Sequence record: NC_019500.1 | Direction: 5' to 3' (one strand) | Origin: Escherichia phage Bp7 | Length of the DNA: 64,000 bases | Part shown: piece by piece, positions 5,747-31,707 of the stretch | How the letters are laid out: the number at the start of each line of letters is the position of its first letter | Numbering within the stretch: position 1 is the stretch's first letter | The notes under the pieces: model-generated | The model's database searches: none | What the model saw: the letters and a program-made list of their open reading frames with translations, nothing else | What the model was told of the DNA's origin: nothing | Translations under genes and position numbers: made by a program

Positions 5747-7270
5747 ATGATTTTAGATATTTTAAACGAAATTGCTGCTATTGATTCTACTAAAGCTAAA
5801 GAAGCCATTATTGCTCGTGAAAAGGACAATGAGCTTCTGAAACGTGTTTATCGTATGGCTTATACCCGTCGTCTGAACTACGGTATTAAAAAGTGGCCAG
5901 AACCTGGATTTACATCTCAATCCTTTGGTATGATTACTCTTGAAGACCTTCTTGATTTCGCTGAATTCACATTAGCCACACGTAAGATTACGGGTAATGC
6001 GGCTATTGAAGAACTGGCTCAAATCATTGCTGATGCTAAGGCCCCGGATGCCGAGGTATTACGTCGTGTAATGATGCGCGACCTTGAATGTGGTGCATCG
6101 ATTTCTATTGCTAACAAGGTTTGGAAAGGTTTAATCCCTGAACAACCGCAGATGTTGGCGAGTTCTTATGATGAAGCTTTGATTAAGAAAAATATTAAAT
6201 GGCCAGCGTTTGCTCAATTAAAAGCTGATGGCGCTCGTTGTTTTGCTGAAGTTCGTAACGATGGTGTGACATTCCTTACTCGTGGTGGTAATGAATATCA
6301 AGGGCTTAATCTTTTGGCGGCTGAATTAATGGCCATGACCGAAGAAGCTCGCCAGCGCCATCCTAATGGTGTTATGATTGACGGTGAATTAGTTTACCAT
6401 ACTCCTAAGGTAGAACCTAAAGCATCTAATGATTTGTTTAGTATGTTTGATGAGGAACTTCCTGAATTAAGTAAGGCTAAGGAATTCCAAACTGTCGCCG
6501 ATCGTTCTACGTCAAATGGATTGGCTAATAAGGCTCTTCAAGGAACTATTACTCCAGCCGAAGCAGCCGGTATGGTATTACAGGCGTGGGATTATGTCCC
6601 ATTGGATGTCGTATATTCCGAAGGTAAAATTAAAGGCGATAAGTATGATGTACGCTTTACAGCCTTAGAACTTATGGTTGCTCATAATGTCGTATTGCAT
6701 GGTGCAACGCGTGTTGAAGCTATCGAAAACCAGTGGGTTAATAATCTTGAAGAAGCTAAAGTTGTTTATAAGAAATATGTCGACCAGGGCCTGGAAGGCA
6801 TTATCCTTAAGAACATGGACTCCTACTGGGAAAACCGCCGTTCTAAGAATCTTATCAAGTTCAAAGAAGTAATCGATATTGCTTTAGAAGTGGTAGGTTA
6901 TTATGAACACTCGAAGGACCCTAACAAACTTGGTGGTGTCGAGTTGGTATCGCGTTGTCGTCGAATTACAAGTGACTGCGGTTCAGGCTTTAAAGATACC
7001 ACCCATAAGAAAGATAAATCAGGTAAAAAGGTATTAATTCCATTGGAAGACCGTCCTGATTTAGACCGTGAACTTCTTATGAAACAAGCTCGTGAAGGTA
7101 AGTTGATTGGACGTATTGCTGACTGTGAATGTAATGGTTGGGTTCATTCTAAAGGACGTACTGATACTGTAGGTATTTTCCTTCCAATCATTAAAGGTTG
7201 GCGTTTCGATAAAACAGAAGCTGATACATTTGAAGATGTATTCGGTGATTGGTCTCAAACTGGTCTATAA
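5747..7270 (+). CDS. 30: ATP-dependent DNA ligase
   Basis: MILDILNEIAA...; adenylation lysine motif AQLKADGARCF; ...NTFEDVFGDW C-terminus as in T4 gp30; start moved to ATG 5747 with GAGGTG RBS. Confidence 0.95.
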   Translation: MILDILNEIAAIDSTKAKEAIIAREKDNELLKRVYRMAYTRRLNYGIKKWPEPGFTSQSFGMITLEDLLDFAEFTLATRKITGNAAIEELAQIIADAKAPDAEVLRRVMMRDLECGASISIANKVWKGLIPEQPQMLASSYDEALIKKNIKWPAFAQLKADGARCFAEVRNDGVTFLTRGGNEYQGLNLLAAELMAMTEEARQRHPNGVMIDGELVYHTPKVEPKASNDLFSMFDEELPELSKAKEFQTVADRSTSNGLANKALQGTITPAEAAGMVLQAWDYVPLDVVYSEGKIKGDKYDVRFTALELMVAHNVVLHGATRVEAIENQWVNNLEEAKVVYKKYVDQGLEGIILKNMDSYWENRRSKNLIKFKEVIDIALEVVGYYEHSKDPNKLGGVELVSRCRRITSDCGSGFKDTTHKKDKSGKKVLIPLEDRPDLDRELLMKQAREGKLIGRIADCECNGWVHSKGRTDTVGIFLPIIKGWRFDKTEADTFEDVFGDWSQTGL

Positions 7271-7271
7271 T

Positions 7272-7454
7272 ATGAAAGCTTATTTAGAAACCGTGGTTAT
7301 TGGATATAAAGAAGGTGGGGATGTCTCCACTGCAGTGTCCCAAATTGTCCTTGAATTTGAAAATGAAATCGCGTTCGCTGATTTTAAAGATAATTTCGAC
7401 CGCTATGAAAAGGGTCCTAAATTTGAAGTGTACCGTACGCTGTTAGTACTTTAA
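7272..7454 (+). CDS. small hypothetical protein
   Basis: 60-aa ORF between ligase and alt, followed by hairpin terminator. Confidence 0.35.
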   Translation: MKAYLETVVIGYKEGGDVSTAVSQIVLEFENEIAFADFKDNFDRYEKGPKFEVYRTLLVL

Positions 7455-7456
7455 TA

Positions 7457-7476
7457 AAGGCCTTCGGGCCTTTTCT
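7457..7476 (+). terminator. hairpin AAGGCC-TTCG-GGCCTT plus T-run
   Basis: Read directly. Confidence 0.5.
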
Positions 7477-7508
7477 GGCATAAATAAGGTTATTAAAGAG
7501 GAATTATT

Positions 7509-9593
7509 ATGACCGAACAATTAAATGAAGTGTTTGAGTCCGAAGGCACACTGCCTACAGTAAACTTGAACCCAAAACTTAAAGTACCCCAGATTTGGAA
7601 GATTGGTGACGCAGAATCCCAATTAGTGGCGCGTATGGTATCCTACGCTTCTGAAGGTGATGCTATTAAACAGGTTAAGATGGGTGATAAATATGCCCAC
7701 GTTATCCTTATGAGCCTTTCAGCTAAAGGTTCGCCTGCCGAACTTAAAGGTGGCCTAGGCCCTACTCCCGTAGATGCGATTAATACTATTTTTGATGTGG
7801 TTTATGACCAAGTTAAAAAGCTTCGTATGGATGCCGTGATGTTCCGTTTCCCTACTAAGAAAATGAAAGGTCAAGGCCCTATCGTTCAACGGATTATCCA
7901 ACGTTTGGTAGCACAGAAAACAGGTGGACGTTTTAAAGTAGTTCCGGCTATGTACCAATTTACCGGTAAACATACTTATATCCTAGTAGTTCGTAAACAG
8001 GCTGATATCGAAGATATCAAAGGTATGCCAGGAATTAATGCCGAATTATACACTAAGGTAGATTCTGATGTCGGTGAAGTTTATATTTCTAAAAAAGAAG
8101 GCGTGCAGGTTACTAAAGAAACTGCTATTGCCGGCAGTATTGCTAAAGTTGAAGAACGTCGCACTGATAAAATGGTTATAACCAAGACTAAGATTTCTCG
8201 TCGTGCCATTGCAGCAAGTCAATCGTTAGAATCTTATCGTAATGAAAGTGAACTGTTTAAGAAATATGAAGCAAATGCCGTAGATTTTAATAAACCTGCA
8301 ACAGCTCCATTAATCCCTGAGGCCCAGGAAATGGTTACTAATAACAATTCTCCCGCGGCTAAAAATAAGGTTGCTAATATAGTAGCTGAAGGTACTGCTG
8401 AAGAATTGCATTATGATTATAAAATGTTTCCTCTTCACGGTATAGGTGAAATCCAAGAGAAAATTAAAGATAAAATTCTTGCGGCCATCAAAAACGAACC
8501 TTTGACATCTGTTAAAGCTCTAGAAAAATATGCCTCTGCTATTAATACCGTTTTCGAAGAATACAAAGGTGAATGGCTGGCCCGGCATAACAAAACTCGT
8601 AAAGGCCAACCTGACGACCTCTGGAATGAATTGACCGATGCGAAGTGGAAAGCCGCCAAGACCAAGTTCATTAAAAAACGTGTATATAGTTTTGCCGGTG
8701 TAGGTGGCGGTATTATGGTCGATATTACTATTGCTCGTGAGGGCTCTAAATATACCCCATCACAAAAGCGCGGCATCAGAGAATATTGTGGCTCAGGATA
8801 TACAGACATAAATAATCTTCTTTTAGGACGCTATAACCCTCAGAACTATGAGGTTATGGGCGAAAAAGATATCGAATCTGCAGTTAATAATTTGGATTCT
8901 GCTTTTGAAAATGGCGACCGTATACCAGAAGGCATCACAGTTTATCGTGCACAGAGTATGACTGCTCCTATATACGAAGCACTAGTTAAAAATAAAGTGT
9001 TCTATTTCAGAAATTTTGTATCCACTTCATTGACTCCTATCATTTTTGGACGTTTTGGTGTTACACACGCCGGTATCGGTCTTTTAGAACCGGAAGTTCG
9101 CGATGAATTGACAGTCGATAAAAATGAAGAAGGAATAACTATTAATCCTAATGAAATAAGAGCATATAAAGAAAATCCTGATTATGTTAAAGTTCAAATA
9201 GGATGGGCTATTGATGGGGCTCATAAAGTTAATGTCGTATATCCAGGAAATCTCGGAATAGAAACTGAAGCCGAAGTTATTCTACCGCGTGGATTAATGG
9301 TCAAAGTTAATAAAATAACAGATGCTTCTAATAATGATGGAACAACATCTAGTAATACAAAACTCATCCAAGCTGAAGTTATGACAACAGATGAGCTTCA
9401 AGAATCTGTGGTATATGATGGTGACGTACTAATGGAAACCGGCGAGTTGGTCGTATATAAAGATGACTTCGATACTTCCGAAAGCCCTGTATCTTTTGAT
9501 TCATTTGTTAAATCTACACGGTTTGATGTATTGCCTCTTTTGGCTTCATGCATAGACCTCTATGACATCCCAGAAAAATTCATCCAAGGGTAA
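7509..9593 (+). CDS. Alt-like ADP-ribosyltransferase, divergent paralog 1
   Basis: 694 aa; ART R/STS/ExE elements (QKRGIREYCGSGY, FYFRNFVSTS, ETEAEVILPRGL); N-terminal LNE motif consistent with prohead protease processing. Confidence 0.85.
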   Translation: MTEQLNEVFESEGTLPTVNLNPKLKVPQIWKIGDAESQLVARMVSYASEGDAIKQVKMGDKYAHVILMSLSAKGSPAELKGGLGPTPVDAINTIFDVVYDQVKKLRMDAVMFRFPTKKMKGQGPIVQRIIQRLVAQKTGGRFKVVPAMYQFTGKHTYILVVRKQADIEDIKGMPGINAELYTKVDSDVGEVYISKKEGVQVTKETAIAGSIAKVEERRTDKMVITKTKISRRAIAASQSLESYRNESELFKKYEANAVDFNKPATAPLIPEAQEMVTNNNSPAAKNKVANIVAEGTAEELHYDYKMFPLHGIGEIQEKIKDKILAAIKNEPLTSVKALEKYASAINTVFEEYKGEWLARHNKTRKGQPDDLWNELTDAKWKAAKTKFIKKRVYSFAGVGGGIMVDITIAREGSKYTPSQKRGIREYCGSGYTDINNLLLGRYNPQNYEVMGEKDIESAVNNLDSAFENGDRIPEGITVYRAQSMTAPIYEALVKNKVFYFRNFVSTSLTPIIFGRFGVTHAGIGLLEPEVRDELTVDKNEEGITINPNEIRAYKENPDYVKVQIGWAIDGAHKVNVVYPGNLGIETEAEVILPRGLMVKVNKITDASNNDGTTSSNTKLIQAEVMTTDELQESVVYDGDVLMETGELVVYKDDFDTSESPVSFDSFVKSTRFDVLPLLASCIDLYDIPEKFIQG

Positions 9594-11648
9594 ATGATGG
9601 AAAATTTAAACGAAGTTTTTGATAGCGATTCCGCTAAAAACTATCCAGTAATAAATCTTAAACCAGGTTCCGGTATCCCACAGATTTTCTCTATTAAAGC
9701 ACCGGGTAATGATAACCTGGTTGCTCGTATGGTATCTTATGCGTCTCAAGGAGACGCTATTAAAATGGTTAAGCCGGGCGACAAATATGTCCACGTTATT
9801 CTAATGAGTTTGTCAAGCAAGGGTGCTCCGGCTGAACTCAAAGGTGGTCTTGGTTCTGACCCACTCGGTACGCTGAATACCATTTTTGATACTGTATACG
9901 AACAAGTAAACAAACTTAAAATGGATGCGGTTTTATTCCGTTTCCCTACCAAGAAAATGAAAGGTAAGGGCCCTACTGTTCAGCGTGTATTAGCTCGTTT
10001 GGCTATGGCTCGTACTGGTGGTAAGTTTAAAGTTGTTGATGCCATGTACCAATTCACTGGAAAACATACCTATGTTCTTTTAGTACGTCGTGGCACTAAT
10101 ATTGAAGATATCAAGGGTATGCCTGAAATTGATGCCGAACTTTATACTAAGGTTGAGTCCAAAGTTGGCGAAGTTTATGTTTCTAAGGAAACCGGCCAGT
10201 CCGTAAGTAAGGCCGAAGCTGTCTCGGCAAGTATAGCTAAGGTTGAAGAGAAACGTACTGATAAGGCCGTCATTACCAAGACTAAGATTTCTCGTCGTGC
10301 TATTGCTATGTCGCAATCCTTAGAATCGTCACGATTTGAAACTCCTATGTTTAAGAAATTTGATTCTAATGCTGCTGAATTGAATAAACCGGCTACGGCT
10401 CCTTTAATGTCAGAAGCAAATGAAATAAAGGTTATTTCTAATTCTTTCTTGGCTTTAGAAAATACCATTAGTGCTAATACTGGTGGTATGTCGTTTAAAG
10501 ACAACCTTCTTATTCCAGAAGATAAAATGGAAGAAATTAATACCGACATAAAAATGAGAGCTTTTGAGAAATTACATGGATTAAATGTGACTTCAGTAAA
10601 AGCCCTAGAAAATTATGCTTCAGTGGTTGATGACGTCATCGAAGAATATAAAGGTCCTTGGCTTCAAAAGCTAATGGCTCAACATTCACACCTAGGTTAT
10701 CACGAAGCAGTCGAGTTGGCTGAAAATTCTTGGAATGCTATAAAGACCAAAATTATTCAACGTGAGCTGCGTGTTTACGCTCTTACCGCCGGTTGGCAAT
10801 TGCATTCTATTATAGAAAATAAAGACGCGTCTCGTTATACTCCTGCCCAGAAACGTGGTATTCGTGAATATGTTGGCTCCGGTTACGAAGATATGAATAA
10901 TGTTCTTTTAGGTCTCCATGACCCGAATGTAAGAAGCAGTATTCTGACTAATGAAGACATAGAAAAAGCTATCAATAACTTAGATTCTGCTTTTGAAAAT
11001 GGCGAACGTCTACCACCAGGTATTACTCTTTATCGTTCCCAACGAATGATTCCTGATATTTACTTGGCTATGATTAGCAATAAAGTATTCTATTTCAGAA
11101 ACTTTGTTTCAACTGCGATATATCCGAATATTTTTGGTACATGGATGACTGATTCTGGTGTTGGTCTTTTGCCTGACGAAAAACGTCGTGATGTTGCATT
11201 AGACAAATCGGATGAAGGTTTAGTATATTCGAATAAAGATACTTTAGTAGGTATTGGTTGGGCCTTTACCGGTACAGATAAGGTAAATGTCGTTTTACCT
11301 GGTGGAGACTTGGCTCCTTCTAACGAAATGGAAGTAATTCTTCCTAGGGGTTTGATGGTCAAAATCAATAAAATTACAGATGCTTCATACAATAACGGAA
11401 CTACTCGTTCTAACAATAAGTTCGTTCAAGCCGAAGTAATGACTGCAGACGAACTTAATGAAGCCGTGGTGTACGATGGTGATGCTCTGATGGAAACAGG
11501 CGAACTAGTTGTCTATAAAGAGGGTAATGAGCTTTCTTTTGATTCTTTTGTTTCTAATGAGAAGAAAAAGAAATCAGACAGAGGTCTTGGCTTGTTAGCT
11601 TCTTGTATAGATATCGACGCTCTCCAGTATAAATTTGTACAAGGGTAG
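9594..11648 (+). CDS. alt: Alt ADP-ribosyltransferase (packaged, modifies host RNA polymerase), paralog 2
   Basis: 684 aa; QKRGIREYVGSGY, FYFRNFVSTA, NEMEVILPRGL, C-terminal LLASCIDI...KFVQG shared with paralog 1. Confidence 0.88.
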   Translation: MMENLNEVFDSDSAKNYPVINLKPGSGIPQIFSIKAPGNDNLVARMVSYASQGDAIKMVKPGDKYVHVILMSLSSKGAPAELKGGLGSDPLGTLNTIFDTVYEQVNKLKMDAVLFRFPTKKMKGKGPTVQRVLARLAMARTGGKFKVVDAMYQFTGKHTYVLLVRRGTNIEDIKGMPEIDAELYTKVESKVGEVYVSKETGQSVSKAEAVSASIAKVEEKRTDKAVITKTKISRRAIAMSQSLESSRFETPMFKKFDSNAAELNKPATAPLMSEANEIKVISNSFLALENTISANTGGMSFKDNLLIPEDKMEEINTDIKMRAFEKLHGLNVTSVKALENYASVVDDVIEEYKGPWLQKLMAQHSHLGYHEAVELAENSWNAIKTKIIQRELRVYALTAGWQLHSIIENKDASRYTPAQKRGIREYVGSGYEDMNNVLLGLHDPNVRSSILTNEDIEKAINNLDSAFENGERLPPGITLYRSQRMIPDIYLAMISNKVFYFRNFVSTAIYPNIFGTWMTDSGVGLLPDEKRRDVALDKSDEGLVYSNKDTLVGIGWAFTGTDKVNVVLPGGDLAPSNEMEVILPRGLMVKINKITDASYNNGTTRSNNKFVQAEVMTADELNEAVVYDGDALMETGELVVYKEGNELSFDSFVSNEKKKKSDRGLGLLASCIDIDALQYKFVQG

Positions 11649-11677
11649 TTTACAAACGCCAAGGATGGTGGTACTAT
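11648..11677 (+). promoter_or_regulatory. early promoter GTTTACA-N17-TACTAT
   Basis: Same architecture as cassettes at 2789, 28271 and 63854; -35 overlaps alt stop. Confidence 0.45.
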
Positions 11678-11705
11678 TACCTTACACAAACATGAGGAGA
11701 ACATT

Positions 11706-11996
11706 ATGAAATCTGCATTCCGCTTTAACGGTCAAGAACTGGTAGTTGAAAACGTTATCCCTGCTTCCGAAGAGTTTGACAGTGCAGTTGGTAATGAATT
11801 GCGTCGAGTTTTCGGTGAAGATAAGCAATTTGATATCCGTCCTGTTGAGAACTTTTCTCATCCGGAACAAACCGAAAACATTTTTAATGGTGTAGTGACT
11901 GGTCAGCTTGAATCTGAAGCTCCTATTTCAGTTACGGTGTTTGTTAAAAAGCAACCACTAATGACTGCAGCAGGTTTCATTTCGTTCCGTAAATAA
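11706..11996 (+). CDS. hypothetical protein (alt-downstream position)
   Basis: 96-aa ORF with GAGGAG RBS, followed by terminator. Confidence 0.5.
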   Translation: MKSAFRFNGQELVVENVIPASEEFDSAVGNELRRVFGEDKQFDIRPVENFSHPEQTENIFNGVVTGQLESEAPISVTVFVKKQPLMTAAGFISFRK

Positions 11997-12005
11997 ACCC
12001 CTAAA

Positions 12006-12030
12006 GGAGAGCGTACGCTCTCCTTTTTTG
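12006..12030 (+). terminator. hairpin GGAGAGCGTACGCTCTCC plus TTTTTTG
   Basis: Read directly; at the convergence of plus early genes and minus late genes. Confidence 0.6.
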
Positions 12031-12042
12031 TTATAGCAACCT

Positions 12043-12984
12043 CTATATTCCATTATTAATAGCACGCCCGCCGAATGTATTAACTAATCCTGTTAATCCA
12101 CTAGAAGCTCCTGAAAGTCTACTTAATTTGGCCACTGAAGAACTCAGGGAATTGCTCTCACTTATACCCGCCACGCCTTTAAGGACTTTATCTTCCAGCC
12201 ATTCGTAAGCAGCCTGTTTACCGACTGCGCCTGTCTGTACACTTCTATAAGCAAATGTAACATCAAACGAAGCAATTTGGTTATCGCCGTCGTAAGATAA
12301 TTCCGGGGAAGATACGCTCACAGGAACGCAACCATTAAGCATTACTACCGTATGTGGTAATCCATTACGGGAATGAAGGTTGACTTGAATGTCAGCTTCA
12401 ACATCCTCCGGTAATGCTCTTAATTGTGTAATAGGGTCTTGAACACTATTGACCCAATCATTAAAAGCACGGTAGTTAGCAGCTTCAGAATCCATACGGA
12501 AGCTTAATACTAATGGAGAATATTCTCTTCCGGTAATTTTGATGTTAGGTGAGTTGTGGTTCAAATCCATTTCATAGTTCAAAGTATTATCCGGGATTTT
12601 AACGGCGTGGACTAAAAGACCTGCCGTAGGATAGGCCATATTGAAAAAATCCATCAGATATGTACCTACTTCAAACTCCCCTAGTAAGCTCTGCACAACC
12701 CTGGATGACATAGCTCCAATCAAATATTTACTTATGCCTGACTTACGAATCAACTTCTGAGTGCCCGCTGTCACTAATGTCGTAACACCTTGGGTCAACT
12801 CTCCTTGTGTAATACCAAACAAATCGCTATTCAATGGGATATTGTTAAATAAAGCTCCACCGAACTGGTCGAGGAGCGTCTGAGATTTAGAAGAAGGAAC
12901 TGTGGCAAATACCACACTAAACAGGTTATTCCTTTGTAGGTCAATATTAATTGCCTGATTCTGAAATTCTTGTAAAGTATACAT
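12043..12984 (-). CDS. 54: baseplate tail-tube initiator
   Basis: 313 aa; size and position as T4 gp54, end of hub operon. Confidence 0.85.
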   Translation of the reverse strand: MYTLQEFQNQAINIDLQRNNLFSVVFATVPSSKSQTLLDQFGGALFNNIPLNSDLFGITQGELTQGVTTLVTAGTQKLIRKSGISKYLIGAMSSRVVQSLLGEFEVGTYLMDFFNMAYPTAGLLVHAVKIPDNTLNYEMDLNHNSPNIKITGREYSPLVLSFRMDSEAANYRAFNDWVNSVQDPITQLRALPEDVEADIQVNLHSRNGLPHTVVMLNGCVPVSVSSPELSYDGDNQIASFDVTFAYRSVQTGAVGKQAAYEWLEDKVLKGVAGISESNSLSSSVAKLSRLSGASSGLTGLVNTFGGRAINNGI

Positions 12985-25663: not shown

Positions 25664-26944
25664 TTATTTTTCTAAAGGCGGTAATTTTACGCCGAGATAA
25701 GAACTCAATTGACTTTGATTAGCCATTTTGTCCATATCAGAACCATCAATAATGCGGGCTTCTTTATCGTCCTTAGCGACGGTATAAGGGTTTGCAGTCA
25801 ATGCATAACGAGCAAGCAATGCTACTGTAGGTTGTAAGCTTTCCGGGTCAACAATAACCTTAAATTCACCAACTGAAGTATCACCTTCTTCGTCAACCAC
25901 ATTCAAACCTTCCGTATAAGGCGCATAATATAAAGATGCGACCGTCTGTCCTTCACCCATCTGGGCATTTACACCAACAATAACATAATCACATGGACTA
26001 TTCATATCAGCATAAAGTGGTAGGCCATTCTTTAATATACCATAAGCCAATTCGTCCTGGTCTTCCTTTTTCTCAACCCAACCAGAGGCGGCGAGAATAG
26101 CAGCACAACGAGAACTAGCTACTGCATAAGTCCCGGCAAAAGAAGTCTGTCGTTGGACGGCAGAGTTCATCTCACACATATAATAATATAATGTGCGAGC
26201 ACGGTCCTGGGCATTATCGTAGCGAGGGTTGGTAAGGTCTAATACACCCTTTTCAGAAACACCCTGGACTTTAAAACGAGAGCTCACGGTAATTAATGAC
26301 TGTAATACATCCTTATTAATTTCTTCTGCCATTTGAATGCCTAGCAGATTTTCAACGAAATTAGGAGCATTAAACCCGTTAGATTCTAGGTCTTGGGCTA
26401 ATTCGACTGTCAATGAAGTTTTCAGTTTACGTGATTTAACTTCAGATTGCCATTTGTCGATGCGGAATCCGGTTTCAGCAATTTCAGGATGGCCTTGTTC
26501 AAATTTAGAAGTAATAGCAGCATCCGACACCATACGGATATGGCCGGCTGCCACTGCTTCAGAAATAACTTCGCTGAGGTTGGTTTCTGTGGTTCCGGCG
26601 AAAGGAGATGCTTCTAGAACTTTAAACACTACGCTTTCAAACTGGAACATATCACCGACCGCATAAGCTGTAGATGAATCAGTAAATTCTGGAATATTTT
26701 CACGTTCCGTCATACCAATCTGGCCCGCAAATGTTGCTCCACCAAGATAAGTCATTTTGTCGTCAGGGTTCAGTACACGTACCCCATACAGAGCAGCAAC
26801 CGGTTGATTTGTTTTTTGTTCAGCAACTAGGGCTTTAAAGATTCGTTTATTAGTTGCTTGGGTGTATGAAAGAAGAGCAGGACGGCCAACCGAGCTGGCA
26901 GCCGTCAATGTGGATTCTTTAATTAGGTCTACAATCTTAGACAT
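25664..26944 (-). CDS. gp24-like head vertex protein, divergent paralog
   Basis: 426 aa; shares LQSLITVS, VELAQDLESNGF, LARYALTANPYTVAKDDKEARIIDGSDMDKMA with adjacent gp24 at roughly half identity. Confidence 0.85.
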   Translation of the reverse strand: MSKIVDLIKESTLTAASSVGRPALLSYTQATNKRIFKALVAEQKTNQPVAALYGVRVLNPDDKMTYLGGATFAGQIGMTERENIPEFTDSSTAYAVGDMFQFESVVFKVLEASPFAGTTETNLSEVISEAVAAGHIRMVSDAAITSKFEQGHPEIAETGFRIDKWQSEVKSRKLKTSLTVELAQDLESNGFNAPNFVENLLGIQMAEEINKDVLQSLITVSSRFKVQGVSEKGVLDLTNPRYDNAQDRARTLYYYMCEMNSAVQRQTSFAGTYAVASSRCAAILAASGWVEKKEDQDELAYGILKNGLPLYADMNSPCDYVIVGVNAQMGEGQTVASLYYAPYTEGLNVVDEEGDTSVGEFKVIVDPESLQPTVALLARYALTANPYTVAKDDKEARIIDGSDMDKMANQSQLSSYLGVKLPPLEK

Positions 26945-28227
26945 TAATCAGCCTCGTAAATAATTGCCGGAAGTTTAACGCCAACCAGATAAGACATATT
27001 GCTCTGTCCAGCCATTAAATCCATATTGGTTGCATCGATAACACGAGCTTCTTTATCGTCTTTAGCCACGGTGTACGGGTTAGCTGATAGTGCATAACGA
27101 ACCATCAGAGAAATAGAAGGTTGTAATGAATCCGGGTCAACAATAACCTTATAAGCACCGACGTGTTCTTGGTCATCTAAATCTAAGCCTTCGGTATAGG
27201 GAGCGTAGAAAATAGAACCGACAACTTCATTACCGCCGTAATTCTCTTTAACACCAACGGTAACATAATCTAATGGACTGTTAACGTCACAAAACAGAGG
27301 CAGACCATTCAACAAATATCCGTATGCAGTTTCCGGAAGCCAATTATTATCTTCGGGTTTATGTTTTAACCAGCCAGAACCTGCAAGCATTGCAGCCACA
27401 CGACTTGAAGCCACAACAAACGTGCCAGAATAAGAAGTAGTTTTCTGGATTTCAGAATTCATCTCACAAACGAGTTCATAAAGTTTACGTGCAGATTCAG
27501 GAGCACTGTCATAAGACAAATCGATGATGCCGTTATCAGATACACCAGTAACTTTATAACGTTTGGATACGGTTATTAGAGATTGCAGAACGTCTTTATT
27601 AATTTCATCTGCCATTACTGTAGCCAAGAGGTCTTCTAAGAACGCCGGCGCGTCAAAGCCATTTGATTCCATATCCTGCGCTAATTCTACAGTCAAAGCC
27701 GTCTTCAATTTACGGGTCTTAACCGGAGCATTCCATTTATTAACCTGGAATACGGCATCAGAGATTTCTACATCACTCGCTTCAAATTTAGTGGTATGGG
27801 CAGCATCAGGAACCAGACGACATGTTAATGACACTAAACCTTCTTGAAGAGCATCAGCCAATTCTGTGGCGCTAGTGGACGCGAGTGGGCTTGCTTTAAG
27901 AGCCTTATAAACCACATTCTGATACTTGAAATATTCACCCTGAGCAATCGCCTGGGCCTTATCTGTGAGTTCTGGGATAGTTTCACGGTCTTTAGAACCA
28001 ACTTCACCACCATAAGAGGCACCTGTCTGGAAACTAAATTCATTATCAGGGGTAAGATATTTGACACCATACAGTGCAGCAATAGGCTGGCTAGTACGTT
28101 GTTCGGCGATAATATCACGGTAAATCAATTTGGTTGTAGCACGGGTCAAAGCAACAAGATTAGGGCGACCCAATGAGTTGCTGGAAGTAGTTGTTGACTC
28201 GCGCAGTAATTCGTTAATCTTTGCCAT
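26944..28227 (-). CDS. 24: head vertex protein gp24
   Basis: 427 aa; MAKINELLRESTTT... matches remembered T4 gp24. Confidence 0.9.
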   Translation of the reverse strand: MAKINELLRESTTTSSNSLGRPNLVALTRATTKLIYRDIIAEQRTSQPIAALYGVKYLTPDNEFSFQTGASYGGEVGSKDRETIPELTDKAQAIAQGEYFKYQNVVYKALKASPLASTSATELADALQEGLVSLTCRLVPDAAHTTKFEASDVEISDAVFQVNKWNAPVKTRKLKTALTVELAQDMESNGFDAPAFLEDLLATVMADEINKDVLQSLITVSKRYKVTGVSDNGIIDLSYDSAPESARKLYELVCEMNSEIQKTTSYSGTFVVASSRVAAMLAGSGWLKHKPEDNNWLPETAYGYLLNGLPLFCDVNSPLDYVTVGVKENYGGNEVVGSIFYAPYTEGLDLDDQEHVGAYKVIVDPDSLQPSISLMVRYALSANPYTVAKDDKEARVIDATNMDLMAGQSNMSYLVGVKLPAIIYEAD

Positions 28228-31071: not shown

Positions 31072-31707
31072 TTATAACGCTTTTTTCATGGCCTCTGCGA
31101 GAGCCATAAAGGCGTCATCGGCACTGGTATCGGTTTCTACCGTTTGTGATTCTGTAATTTGCTTTGGAGTTACATAAGCATCAGGAGCAGATGGTCCCCA
31201 TACTGCATCAACACCGACGGTTAATTTATAACCTTCGTTTACACGCTTATATCCTTTGTTGGTTTCGGTTAAAGAACCAAGACCGCGAGAACTAACACCA
31301 GGAACCCAGCCAGCTCGGATATTTGCAGCTAGTTTATCACCCGGGCCATGGTCACCTTCGATGATACGTGCACGTCCATAAACATCATTACCTTTCCACC
31401 ACATATCTTCAATAATGATAGCAGCTTGCATAGGGTCGACGTTAGCACGAGGTGGATGGTTTAATTCTCCTAAAGCTTGTTTAGTAGCAACTTGTTCTGC
31501 CATGTAATCGGCAACGGCTTTTTCCAAAATAGGTTTTGGGTAAAGGCGTTTATTACGGTTAACTACCTCTGCTTGCATGAAAATGCCTTCTATATAAAGG
31601 CCGGGAGCAAGACCAGAATTTTTTCCATCATGAGATTCCAGCATTGGAACCCCATCGATAATTTCACCTGGTTGTCCCCAATGTTCGATGAGCAATTCAG
31701 GTTTCAT
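31072..31707 (-). CDS. 21: prohead core protease
   Basis: 211 aa; synteny and size as T4 gp21. Confidence 0.9.
   Translation of the reverse strand: MKPELLIEHWGQPGEIIDGVPMLESHDGKNSGLAPGLYIEGIFMQAEVVNRNKRLYPKPILEKAVADYMAEQVATKQALGELNHPPRANVDPMQAAIIIEDMWWKGNDVYGRARIIEGDHGPGDKLAANIRAGWVPGVSSRGLGSLTETNKGYKRVNEGYKLTVGVDAVWGPSAPDAYVTPKQITESQTVETDTSADDAFMALAEAMKKAL

Follow-up and report, generated by a model that had tools for sequence, protein, structure and literature searches.

Why does Escherichia phage Bp7 keep two full-length alt genes side by side, and do their products act on different targets in the host? The locus lies in the 64,000-nucleotide stretch of Bp7 DNA that we analysed (record NC_019500.1; hereafter "the window"). 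In its six-frame list of open reading frames (ORFs), the two genes abut on the plus strand with exactly the coordinates, lengths and adjacency given in a preliminary description of this DNA.

7509..9593, plus strand: alt copy 1 ("alta" type), 694 residues
9594..11648, plus strand: alt copy 2, 684 residues counted from the first ATG

The explanation we favour, with a probability of roughly 0.8, is that the pair encodes two Alt-type ADP-ribosyltransferases (ARTs) that are co-expressed late, packaged, trimmed by the prohead protease gp21, injected, and directed against arginines. Both genes would most likely be read late from one transcript starting at the element CATAAATA, behind the hairpin that follows alt.1, and both proteins would be built into the prohead core. 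There gp21 would cut each protein twice, near the N-terminus after E7 and near the C-terminus after E632 (copy 1) or E623 (copy 2), and the mature enzymes would enter the host with the DNA and ADP-ribosylate host arginines at the start of the next infection. We infer the late expression, packaging, cleavage, injection, arginine specificity and targets by homology with T4, in which Alt is non-essential, is packaged in the head in ~40 copies and is injected with the DNA (PMC9026906), and in which its targets include R265 of the RNA polymerase alpha subunit (PMC8120803).

Both proteins proved to be full-length members of the Alt family, as had been supposed. They are 56% identical to each other over their full length (BLASTP), and both match the Pfam family PF03496 (ADPrib_exo_Tox) above its gathering cut-off of 23.4 bits (copy 1: 4.7e-35, 121.1 bits; copy 2: 5.4e-26, 91.6 bits). 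Both also span positions 1-674 of the 674 in the profile phrog_802, "Alt-like RNA polymerase ADP-ribosyltransferase", with E-values of 2.6e-263 for copy 1 and 5.3e-254 for copy 2. Precomputed matches to PF26846 (Tevenvirinae_ADPRT) exist for the identical database proteins (P0121 and P0001 in our set), and NCBIfam gave no match for either Alt protein. Judged by these matches and by the motifs described below, both copies are full-length Alt-type mono-ADP-ribosyltransferases of the R-S-ExE class.

The tandem pair is real, but it is not a discovery, because it is already annotated in Bp7 and its genus, Dhakavirus (Straboviridae). Each copy is 100% identical to a deposited "ADP-ribosylase [Escherichia phage Bp7]" entry at NCBI, and the tandem genes are named alta and altb in the records of IME08, JS10 and JS98. 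Three copies are present in QL01, KIT01, AnYang, C6 and MX01, and all of these phages share with Bp7 the genus, the locus and the tandem layout, with 96-98% identity in copy 1. The closest record in the phage collection is that of the Dhakavirus vB_EcoM_FB (hereafter FB), with 93.7% DNA identity over all 4,140 bases of the locus. T4 differs in having one full-length alt instead of two; its GenBank record describes alt.-1 and alt.-2 as what is left of a second copy, from an ancient duplication of the 5' portion of alt. Full-length and partial tandem duplications of alt have been described in 44RR, RB49 and T4 (Nolan et al. 2006, PMC1524935); by that description, ORF187c of Aeromonas phage 44RR together with its alt, and the partial copies ORF183c of RB49 and ORF188c of 44RR, are comparable cases from other genera. 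The 2010 review of T4 genomes does not mention alt.

The catalytic elements that had been reported for both copies are indeed in place, and alignment left neither copy without its catalytic residues. Copy 1 has R480, the STS motif at residues 505-507 and E587-A-E589, and copy 2 has R481, STA at residues 506-508 and E578-M-E580, so that the difference between STS and STA stands as first described. For conservation we used an alignment of 237 Alt-like sequences and, for invariance, a separate alignment of 40 sequences (A1). The E-x-E motif is preceded by the ADP-ribosylating turn-turn (ARTT) loop, the substrate-determining element in this class of ARTs (PMC3000352).

8946..8948, plus strand: copy 1 catalytic Arg480 (VYRAQ), nearly invariant in alignment A1
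9021..9029, plus strand: copy 1 S505-T506-S507 (STS), S505 invariant
9267..9275, plus strand: copy 1 E587-A-E589 (E-x-E), both Glu invariant, preceded by an ARTT loop, PGN-LGIET, unlike that of T4 Alt
11034..11036, plus strand: copy 2 catalytic Arg481 (LYRSQ, the same in T4 Alt)
11109..11117, plus strand: copy 2 S506-T507-A508 (STA), with codon GCG against TCA in FB
11325..11333, plus strand: copy 2 E578-M-E580 (E-x-E), ARTT loop PGGDLAPSNEME (T4 Alt: PGGSLAPSNEME)

E-x-E is present in all 237 sequences and [YW]R in 236 of them; at the third motif, STS was counted 227 times, STA four times and SAS three times. None of the sequences inspected has lost the first serine of this motif, which does not vary in the 40-sequence alignment. 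In T4 Alt, replacement of the second glutamate of E-x-E (E577A) yields an inactive protein (PMC11404850).

Two relatives stand apart in this respect. In the 237-sequence alignment, RB69 Alt (P0190, 695 residues) has KD in place of [YW]R and SET in place of STS but keeps EQE, which reflects either a local misalignment or an unusual, possibly inactive Alt. The second alt copy of vB_EcoM_005 (L008, 6504-8528) carries a 33-residue in-frame deletion relative to copy 3 of KIT01, to which it is otherwise ~98-100% identical; the deletion takes out E-x-E and the following strands and leaves a catalytically dead paralogue, in a record (155 kb) that may be incomplete.

The fold points in the same direction as the motifs. 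An AlphaFold model of copy 1 has a mean predicted local distance difference test score (pLDDT) of 80, with mostly 80-95 in the ART domain, and a Foldseek search of the PDB with this predicted model returned the Vis toxin, CDTa, iota Ia, VIP2 and C3 at E-values of 3e-8 to 1e-3, the top match being Vis (4xzj; E 2.9e-8, target TM-score 0.68). By sequence, the PDB yielded no solved Alt structure and only weak phmmer matches to CDTa and iota Ia over region 1. These R-S-E toxins, C2/C3/VIP2-like members of the cholera-toxin group, have the same catalytic fold and motifs as the Alt copies at 15-22% identity. The phage proteins differ from them in a large insertion between STS and the ARTT loop, in a phage-specific N-domain and helical linker, and in delivery, which relies on the phage head in the case of Alt and on a toxin B component in the case of the toxins.

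If the proteins are packaged like T4 Alt, they should carry the processing sites of a prohead protein. T4 Alt is cut by gp21 at ITE-6 and LTE-619, as mapped by mass spectrometry, and loses 63 C-terminal residues to yield a protein of 68.2 kDa (PMC5694885; review: PMC9026906); the mass that we computed for T4 Alt residues 7-619, 68.2 kDa, agrees with the published value. The N-terminal L-N-E motif to which attention had been drawn occurs in both copies at residues 5-7 and aligns exactly with ITE-6, and a second site aligns with LTE-619. The gene for the protease itself lies in the window.

7521..7529, plus strand: copy 1 L-N-E, residues 5-7, predicted gp21 cut after E7, aligned with T4 ITE-6
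9396..9404, plus strand: copy 1 L-Q-E, residues 630-632, predicted C-terminal gp21 site, aligned with T4 LTE-619
9405..9590, plus strand: copy 1 C-terminal tail, 62 residues, predicted propeptide, homologous to the 63 residues cut from T4 Alt
9606..9614, plus strand: copy 2 L-N-E, predicted N-terminal gp21 site
11454..11462, plus strand: copy 2 L-N-E, residues 621-623, predicted C-terminal gp21 site
11463..11645, plus strand: copy 2 C-terminal tail, 61 residues, predicted propeptide
31072..31707, minus strand: gp21 prohead core protease, Pfam PF03420 (Peptidase_S77), 6.4e-103

Among the 237 homologues, [LI]-x-E occupies the N-terminal site column in 236 and [LIM]-x-E the C-terminal one in all 237. 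In the copy 1 model, residues 1-11 and 631-673 score below 50 in pLDDT, with weak values for what remains of the tail, and therefore both gp21 sites fall at the border of disordered termini. The shared C-terminal tail, noted before as a common feature of the pair, is 63% identical between the copies, and the alignment with T4 Alt allows us to describe it more precisely as, most likely, a second, C-terminal propeptide. Since T4 Alt is shortened by 63 residues at LTE-619 and the [L]-x-E motif persists there in both copies, the tail is probably outside the mature injected enzyme. Cleavage of the Bp7 proteins, which we propose by homology with T4, would give mature masses of 69.4 kDa (copy 1) and 68.2 kDa (copy 2).

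The start of copy 2 deserves a remark in this context. The stop codon TAA of copy 1 directly adjoins ATGATG, and the codon corresponding to 9594 is ATA in FB and QL01, the only relatives in which this junction was read, the gene there beginning at the second ATG. For this reason the true start of copy 2 is probably 9597, giving a protein of 683 residues that begins MENLNE, with six residues before the predicted cut like MELITE in T4.

The two copies were also said to be strongly diverged in their central regions, and the centre is in fact the least similar part: identity is 35% there (copy-2 residues 246-410), but 69% for the N-domain, 60% for the ART domain and 63% for the tail. As taken from the AlphaFold model, copy 1 consists of a propeptide (1-7), an alpha/beta N-domain (~12-236), a hinge (237-243), an all-helical linker (248-410), the ART domain (411-632) and the tail (633-694). 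The hinge has pLDDT values below 50, and the helical linker is predicted confidently (above 90). The N-domain ends at a short conserved sequence, KISRRAIA.

8190..8213, plus strand: copy 1 KISRRAIA, junction of the N-domain with the linker and ART domain; a 26-nucleotide exact run here is the longest common to both copies
10284..10307, plus strand: copy 2 KISRRAIA junction, where DNA homology to most other Dhakaviruses ends

In a megablast comparison, the alignments with IME08, JS10, QL01 and others break off at query base 2790, corresponding to window position 10298 and to residue ~235 of copy 2. On the N-terminal side of this point, copy 2 is 90% identical to IME08 altb, 69% to copy 1 and 46% to T4 Alt (and 92% to the N-domain of QL01 copy 2); in the linker the corresponding values are 17%, 35% and 60%, and in the ART domain 37%, 60% and 78%. 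Relative to T4 Alt, identity thus rises from ~42-46% before residue ~235 to 60-78% after it. By this pattern of identities the divergence of the copies is modular rather than diffuse: copy 2 switches partner at residue ~235 and, as a mosaic, combines an N-domain of the Dhakavirus "type B" with a linker/ART module orthologous to that of T4 Alt. A recent horizontal import of this C-terminal module from a Tequatrovirus was considered and rejected. Its DNA matches are mostly Tequatrovirus-like at ~71%, apart from a few records at 80-95%, of which IME540 (90.7%) is the best, and its protein identity to T4 is in line with that of the flanking genes (mostly 58-72% to their T4 orthologues; 37% for gp29); the module therefore appears to descend vertically, as the orthologue of T4 Alt.

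A related arrangement was seen in a metagenome contig (L005; ENA ERZ17811656 NODE_16185, 2685 bp), which has a single alt gene (325-2370), flanked by alt.1 and the next gene. Over the first ~660 nucleotides this gene is mostly ~90% identical to copy 1 and over the remainder mostly 98-100% to copy 2, with the crossover at the KISRRAIA junction, as expected from unequal recombination of tandem copies; the contig has a coverage of 2.5x and is possibly an assembly chimera.

Both genes are under strong purifying selection. The ratios of nonsynonymous to synonymous substitution rates (dN/dS), computed between Bp7 and FB, are 0.058 for copy 1 and 0.078 for copy 2 (0.09 when only its ART domain is taken), and such low values imply that both genes are maintained by selection. 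An alternative is that the copies are redundant, acting on the same targets and serving dosage or backup, with the divergence of the linker due to neutral drift. The ART domains are after all 60% identical with all catalytic motifs in common, T4 copes with a single, non-essential Alt, and close relatives vary from two to three or more copies. We nevertheless regard redundancy as unlikely. The ARTT loop of copy 2 (PGGDLAPSNEME) is near-identical to that of T4 Alt (PGGSLAPSNEME), whereas that of copy 1 (PGN-LGIETEAE) is different, also in length. The linker, at only 35% identity between the copies, is nonetheless predicted to be well folded (pLDDT above 90) and evolves among orthologues at a dN/dS of 0.05-0.10, which is not the pattern of neutral drift. 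Finally, sequence differences between the types of linker/ART module in the genus amount to 50-78%, whereas within each type the carriers show 93-100% conservation. Different targets for the two enzymes are plausible because the ARTT loops differ and that of copy 2 is so close to that of T4 Alt. From this comparison, copy 2 probably keeps the targets of T4 Alt (R265 of RNA polymerase alpha, MazF, EF-Tu and others), and copy 1 probably covers a partly different set.

A second objection concerns the activity of copy 2, which might be attenuated or inactive through its S-T-A motif and persist as a structural head component or decoy. The consensus of this motif is [YF]-x-S-T-[SQT], with Ser, Thr or Gln as the third residue, which helps to orient the ARTT loop; the equivalent mutant of iota toxin (S340A) has ~25% of its activity left, compared with 5% for the first serine (PMC3000352). 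STA is rare (4 of 237 sequences), and the second copy of vB_EcoM_005, devoid of E-x-E, indicates that dead copies do occur in the genus. This alternative is nonetheless improbable in our opinion: in copy 2 the first serine, the arginine and both glutamates are intact, its ART domain is under strong purifying selection, and an enzyme with 25% activity is still an active enzyme. Moreover, STA is found in the alt gene of the metagenome contig mentioned above (P0002/L005), whose ART module is 99% identical to that of copy 2. Because that sequence was sampled independently, STA is a stable lineage variant and not a sequencing error.

Several signals surround the genes.

7456..7473, plus strand: GGCC-UUCG-GGCC terminator-like hairpin after alt.1, read from the sequence
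7479..7486, plus strand: CATAAATA, late-promoter-like element at the site of T4 TATAAATA upstream of alt, with a function suggested by its position
7496..7502, plus strand: strong Shine-Dalgarno sequence AAGAGGA for copy 1, read from the sequence
12003..12026, plus strand: terminator-like hairpin with a T-run, between the alt operon and the convergent gene 54

T4 and every Dhakavirus locus examined have an identical hairpin ahead of alt, in agreement with the conserved terminator reported at this place (PMC1524935), and as in T4 the hairpin is followed by a late-promoter-like box, the CATAAATA form of which is kept in all eight Dhakavirus loci compared. A promoter and terminator scan of 7000-12200 found no excess of sigma-70-like sites (14, against 14.3 in shuffled sequence) and nothing promoter- or terminator-like between the two alt genes; because of this empty interval we propose no separate promoter for copy 2. 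In the whole window (1-64000), exact TATAAATA was counted 21 times where 7.2 would be expected, with a concentration on the minus strand at 28-43 kb, in the block of head and tail genes, and this enrichment fits T4-type late transcription in Bp7.

ModA and ModB are short proteins without the Alt N-domain, the other two ARTs of T4, and are not injected with the DNA. That only one of the Bp7 copies is packaged and injected, the other acting in the producing cell like ModA and ModB, is hardly probable: although the packaging of both is argued from homology and their N-domains (68-69% identical) fall into two position-specific types, both retain the Alt N-domain, both gp21 columns and the tail, features that are meaningful only if the protein goes into the prohead, and no separate promoter or terminator lies between them.

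Several observations nevertheless weigh against two packaged and active enzymes with separate targets. The upstream element is CATAAATA and not the T4 consensus TATAAATA, of which no exact copy occurs upstream of copy 1 or copy 2, the one-mismatch form being the only one present. The motif [LI]-x-E also occurs internally, 11 times in copy 1 and eight times in copy 2, so that the motif by itself proves little and the argument leans on the alignment with the mapped sites of T4. The third STS residue of copy 2 is alanine, at a position that in iota toxin orients the ARTT loop and whose alanine mutant has the reduced activity (~25%) cited above. The identity of the ARTT loop suggests common targets with T4 Alt without proving them. 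Lastly, the searchable literature yielded no virion proteomics for any Dhakavirus, and the virions of Morganella phage MP1 contain a single Alt homologue only.

The favoured explanation, of two injected Alt enzymes, can be viewed against the variation of the locus within the genus, for which eight Dhakavirus loci were compared. The copies in slot 1 all carry one type of N-domain (A; 92-100% identical), and those in slots 2 and 3 carry the other (B; 87-98%). Behind these constant domains we count at least six types of linker/ART module, each, as mentioned, highly conserved among its carriers and 22-50% identical to the others. An exception to this range is VR5, which differs from Bp7 in having a T4-like module in slot 1, 64-66% identical to the T4-type module. 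Copy 1 of Bp7 is 96-99% conserved among the Dhakaviruses that have its module type. In most of the other phages with two or three copies, the second or third copy has a module of another type, which past residue 235 shares no more than 22-30% identity with Bp7 copy 2, and within the phage collection the T4-type module stands behind a type-B N-domain only in FB, Ec2-ASingh, IME540 and Bp7. Copy 1 of KIT01 is 95% identical to that of Bp7 in the N-domain, 49% in the linker plus ART and 97% in the tail, which amounts to an internal cassette swap between conserved ends. In the 237-sequence set, too, clusters of N-domains and of ART domains are combined in many ways.

The Dhakavirus loci named above share the inter-copy junction "...QG TAA ATA ATG GAA AAT". 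The copy-to-copy boundary ("...AAATTCATCCAAGGGTAAATAATGGAAAATTTAAA...") is near-identical at the junctions 1|2 and 2|3 of QL01 (L002, 6062-6107 and 8111-8156), in FB (L001, 6062-6107) and in Bp7 (window 9570-9615), and a repeated boundary of this kind could promote the gain and loss of copies.

It is tempting to regard the alt locus as a polymorphic-effector cassette array, in which the constant N-domains and C-terminal propeptides would serve as packaging and processing handles around interchangeable linker-ART cassettes, swapped by homologous recombination at the KISRRAIA junction and at the tail, so that every phage would deliver a particular set of two or three ARTs aimed at different targets in the host or its defences. 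We give this idea slightly less than even odds: the pattern of identities is observed, and diversifying selection on the targets belongs to the hypothesis only. Such an array would resemble the variable internal proteins that stand behind a constant capsid-targeting sequence. We found no description of the cassette-like pattern in the searchable literature, with the JS98 genome paper outside that search, and in our view it enlarges on a feature already known.

A role of the N-domain as a module for head targeting or delivery is a fair conjecture. The domain is rare (70 clusters among 1.84 billion representatives in a sequence search), is N-terminal in all matches except the weakest, and is nearly always joined to an ART domain, which was also found in six of the ten atypical N-domain proteins checked. 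Against predicted viral structures it gave strong matches to Alt and weaker ones (E 1e-3 to 1e-8) to parts of large uncharacterised phage proteins, some of them annotated as zeta-toxin, deaminase or ParB. A GNAT-like fold, possibly with an activity of its own, is a more speculative idea prompted by a weak structural hint; a profile search against PDB sequences was empty in this regard, and no acetyltransferase family appeared in Pfam at E-values up to 10. Four further proteins, P0289 (1142 residues), P0293 (541), P0288 (485) and P0290 (347), carry an Alt-type N-domain at their N-terminus without a Pfam-recognisable domain downstream, and may be non-ART effectors on the same delivery module.

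The surroundings of the pair are those of alt in T4 (gpAlt, UniProt P12726). The order of genes is gene 30 (ligase), alt.1, alt, alt.-3 and then the convergent genes 54, 48 and 29, so that the pair sits between gene 30/alt.1 and alt.-3/gene 54, as the single alt does in T4.

7272..7454, plus strand: alt.1 homologue, 60 residues, in the T4-like position; Pfam PF24647 (Phage_blade) 4.5e-29; 65% identity to T4 Alt.1
11706..11996, plus strand: alt.-3 homologue, 96 residues, DUF5498; Pfam PF17602 3.1e-34; marks the end of the locus as in T4, by synteny

T4 Alt also resembles the Bp7 copies in length, in the four-part architecture, in the R, S-T-S and E-x-E motifs and in both gp21 columns, and copy 2 in particular in its linker and ART domain (60-78% identical) and ARTT loop. 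The differences lie in the N-domains (42-47% identical to that of T4), in the linker (33%) and ARTT loop of copy 1, and in STA of copy 2 against STS of T4. Elsewhere in the window, two adjacent paralogues of a gp24-like vertex protein (25664-26944 and 26944-28227, minus strand, 426 and 427 residues), both of which match Pfam Gp23 at ~1e-96 to 1e-98, form a second tandem duplication of a head gene within the same 64 kb.

These results leave the annotation unaffected, both genes being already deposited and named. They do suggest that propeptides are conserved at both ends in every homologue examined, which extends the 2017 observation on T4 to the whole family, and they mark out the tail and the N-domain for tests of head targeting, a matter of use in engineering protein delivery by T4-like capsids. 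Above all, the locus offers a natural experiment, in which a module orthologous to T4 Alt stands beside a diverged paralogue, and relatives carry other modules behind the same N-domain. Comparison of the targets of the mature enzymes could separate the core take-over of the host, as by modification of RNA polymerase, from strain-specific counter-defence against MazF-like toxins.

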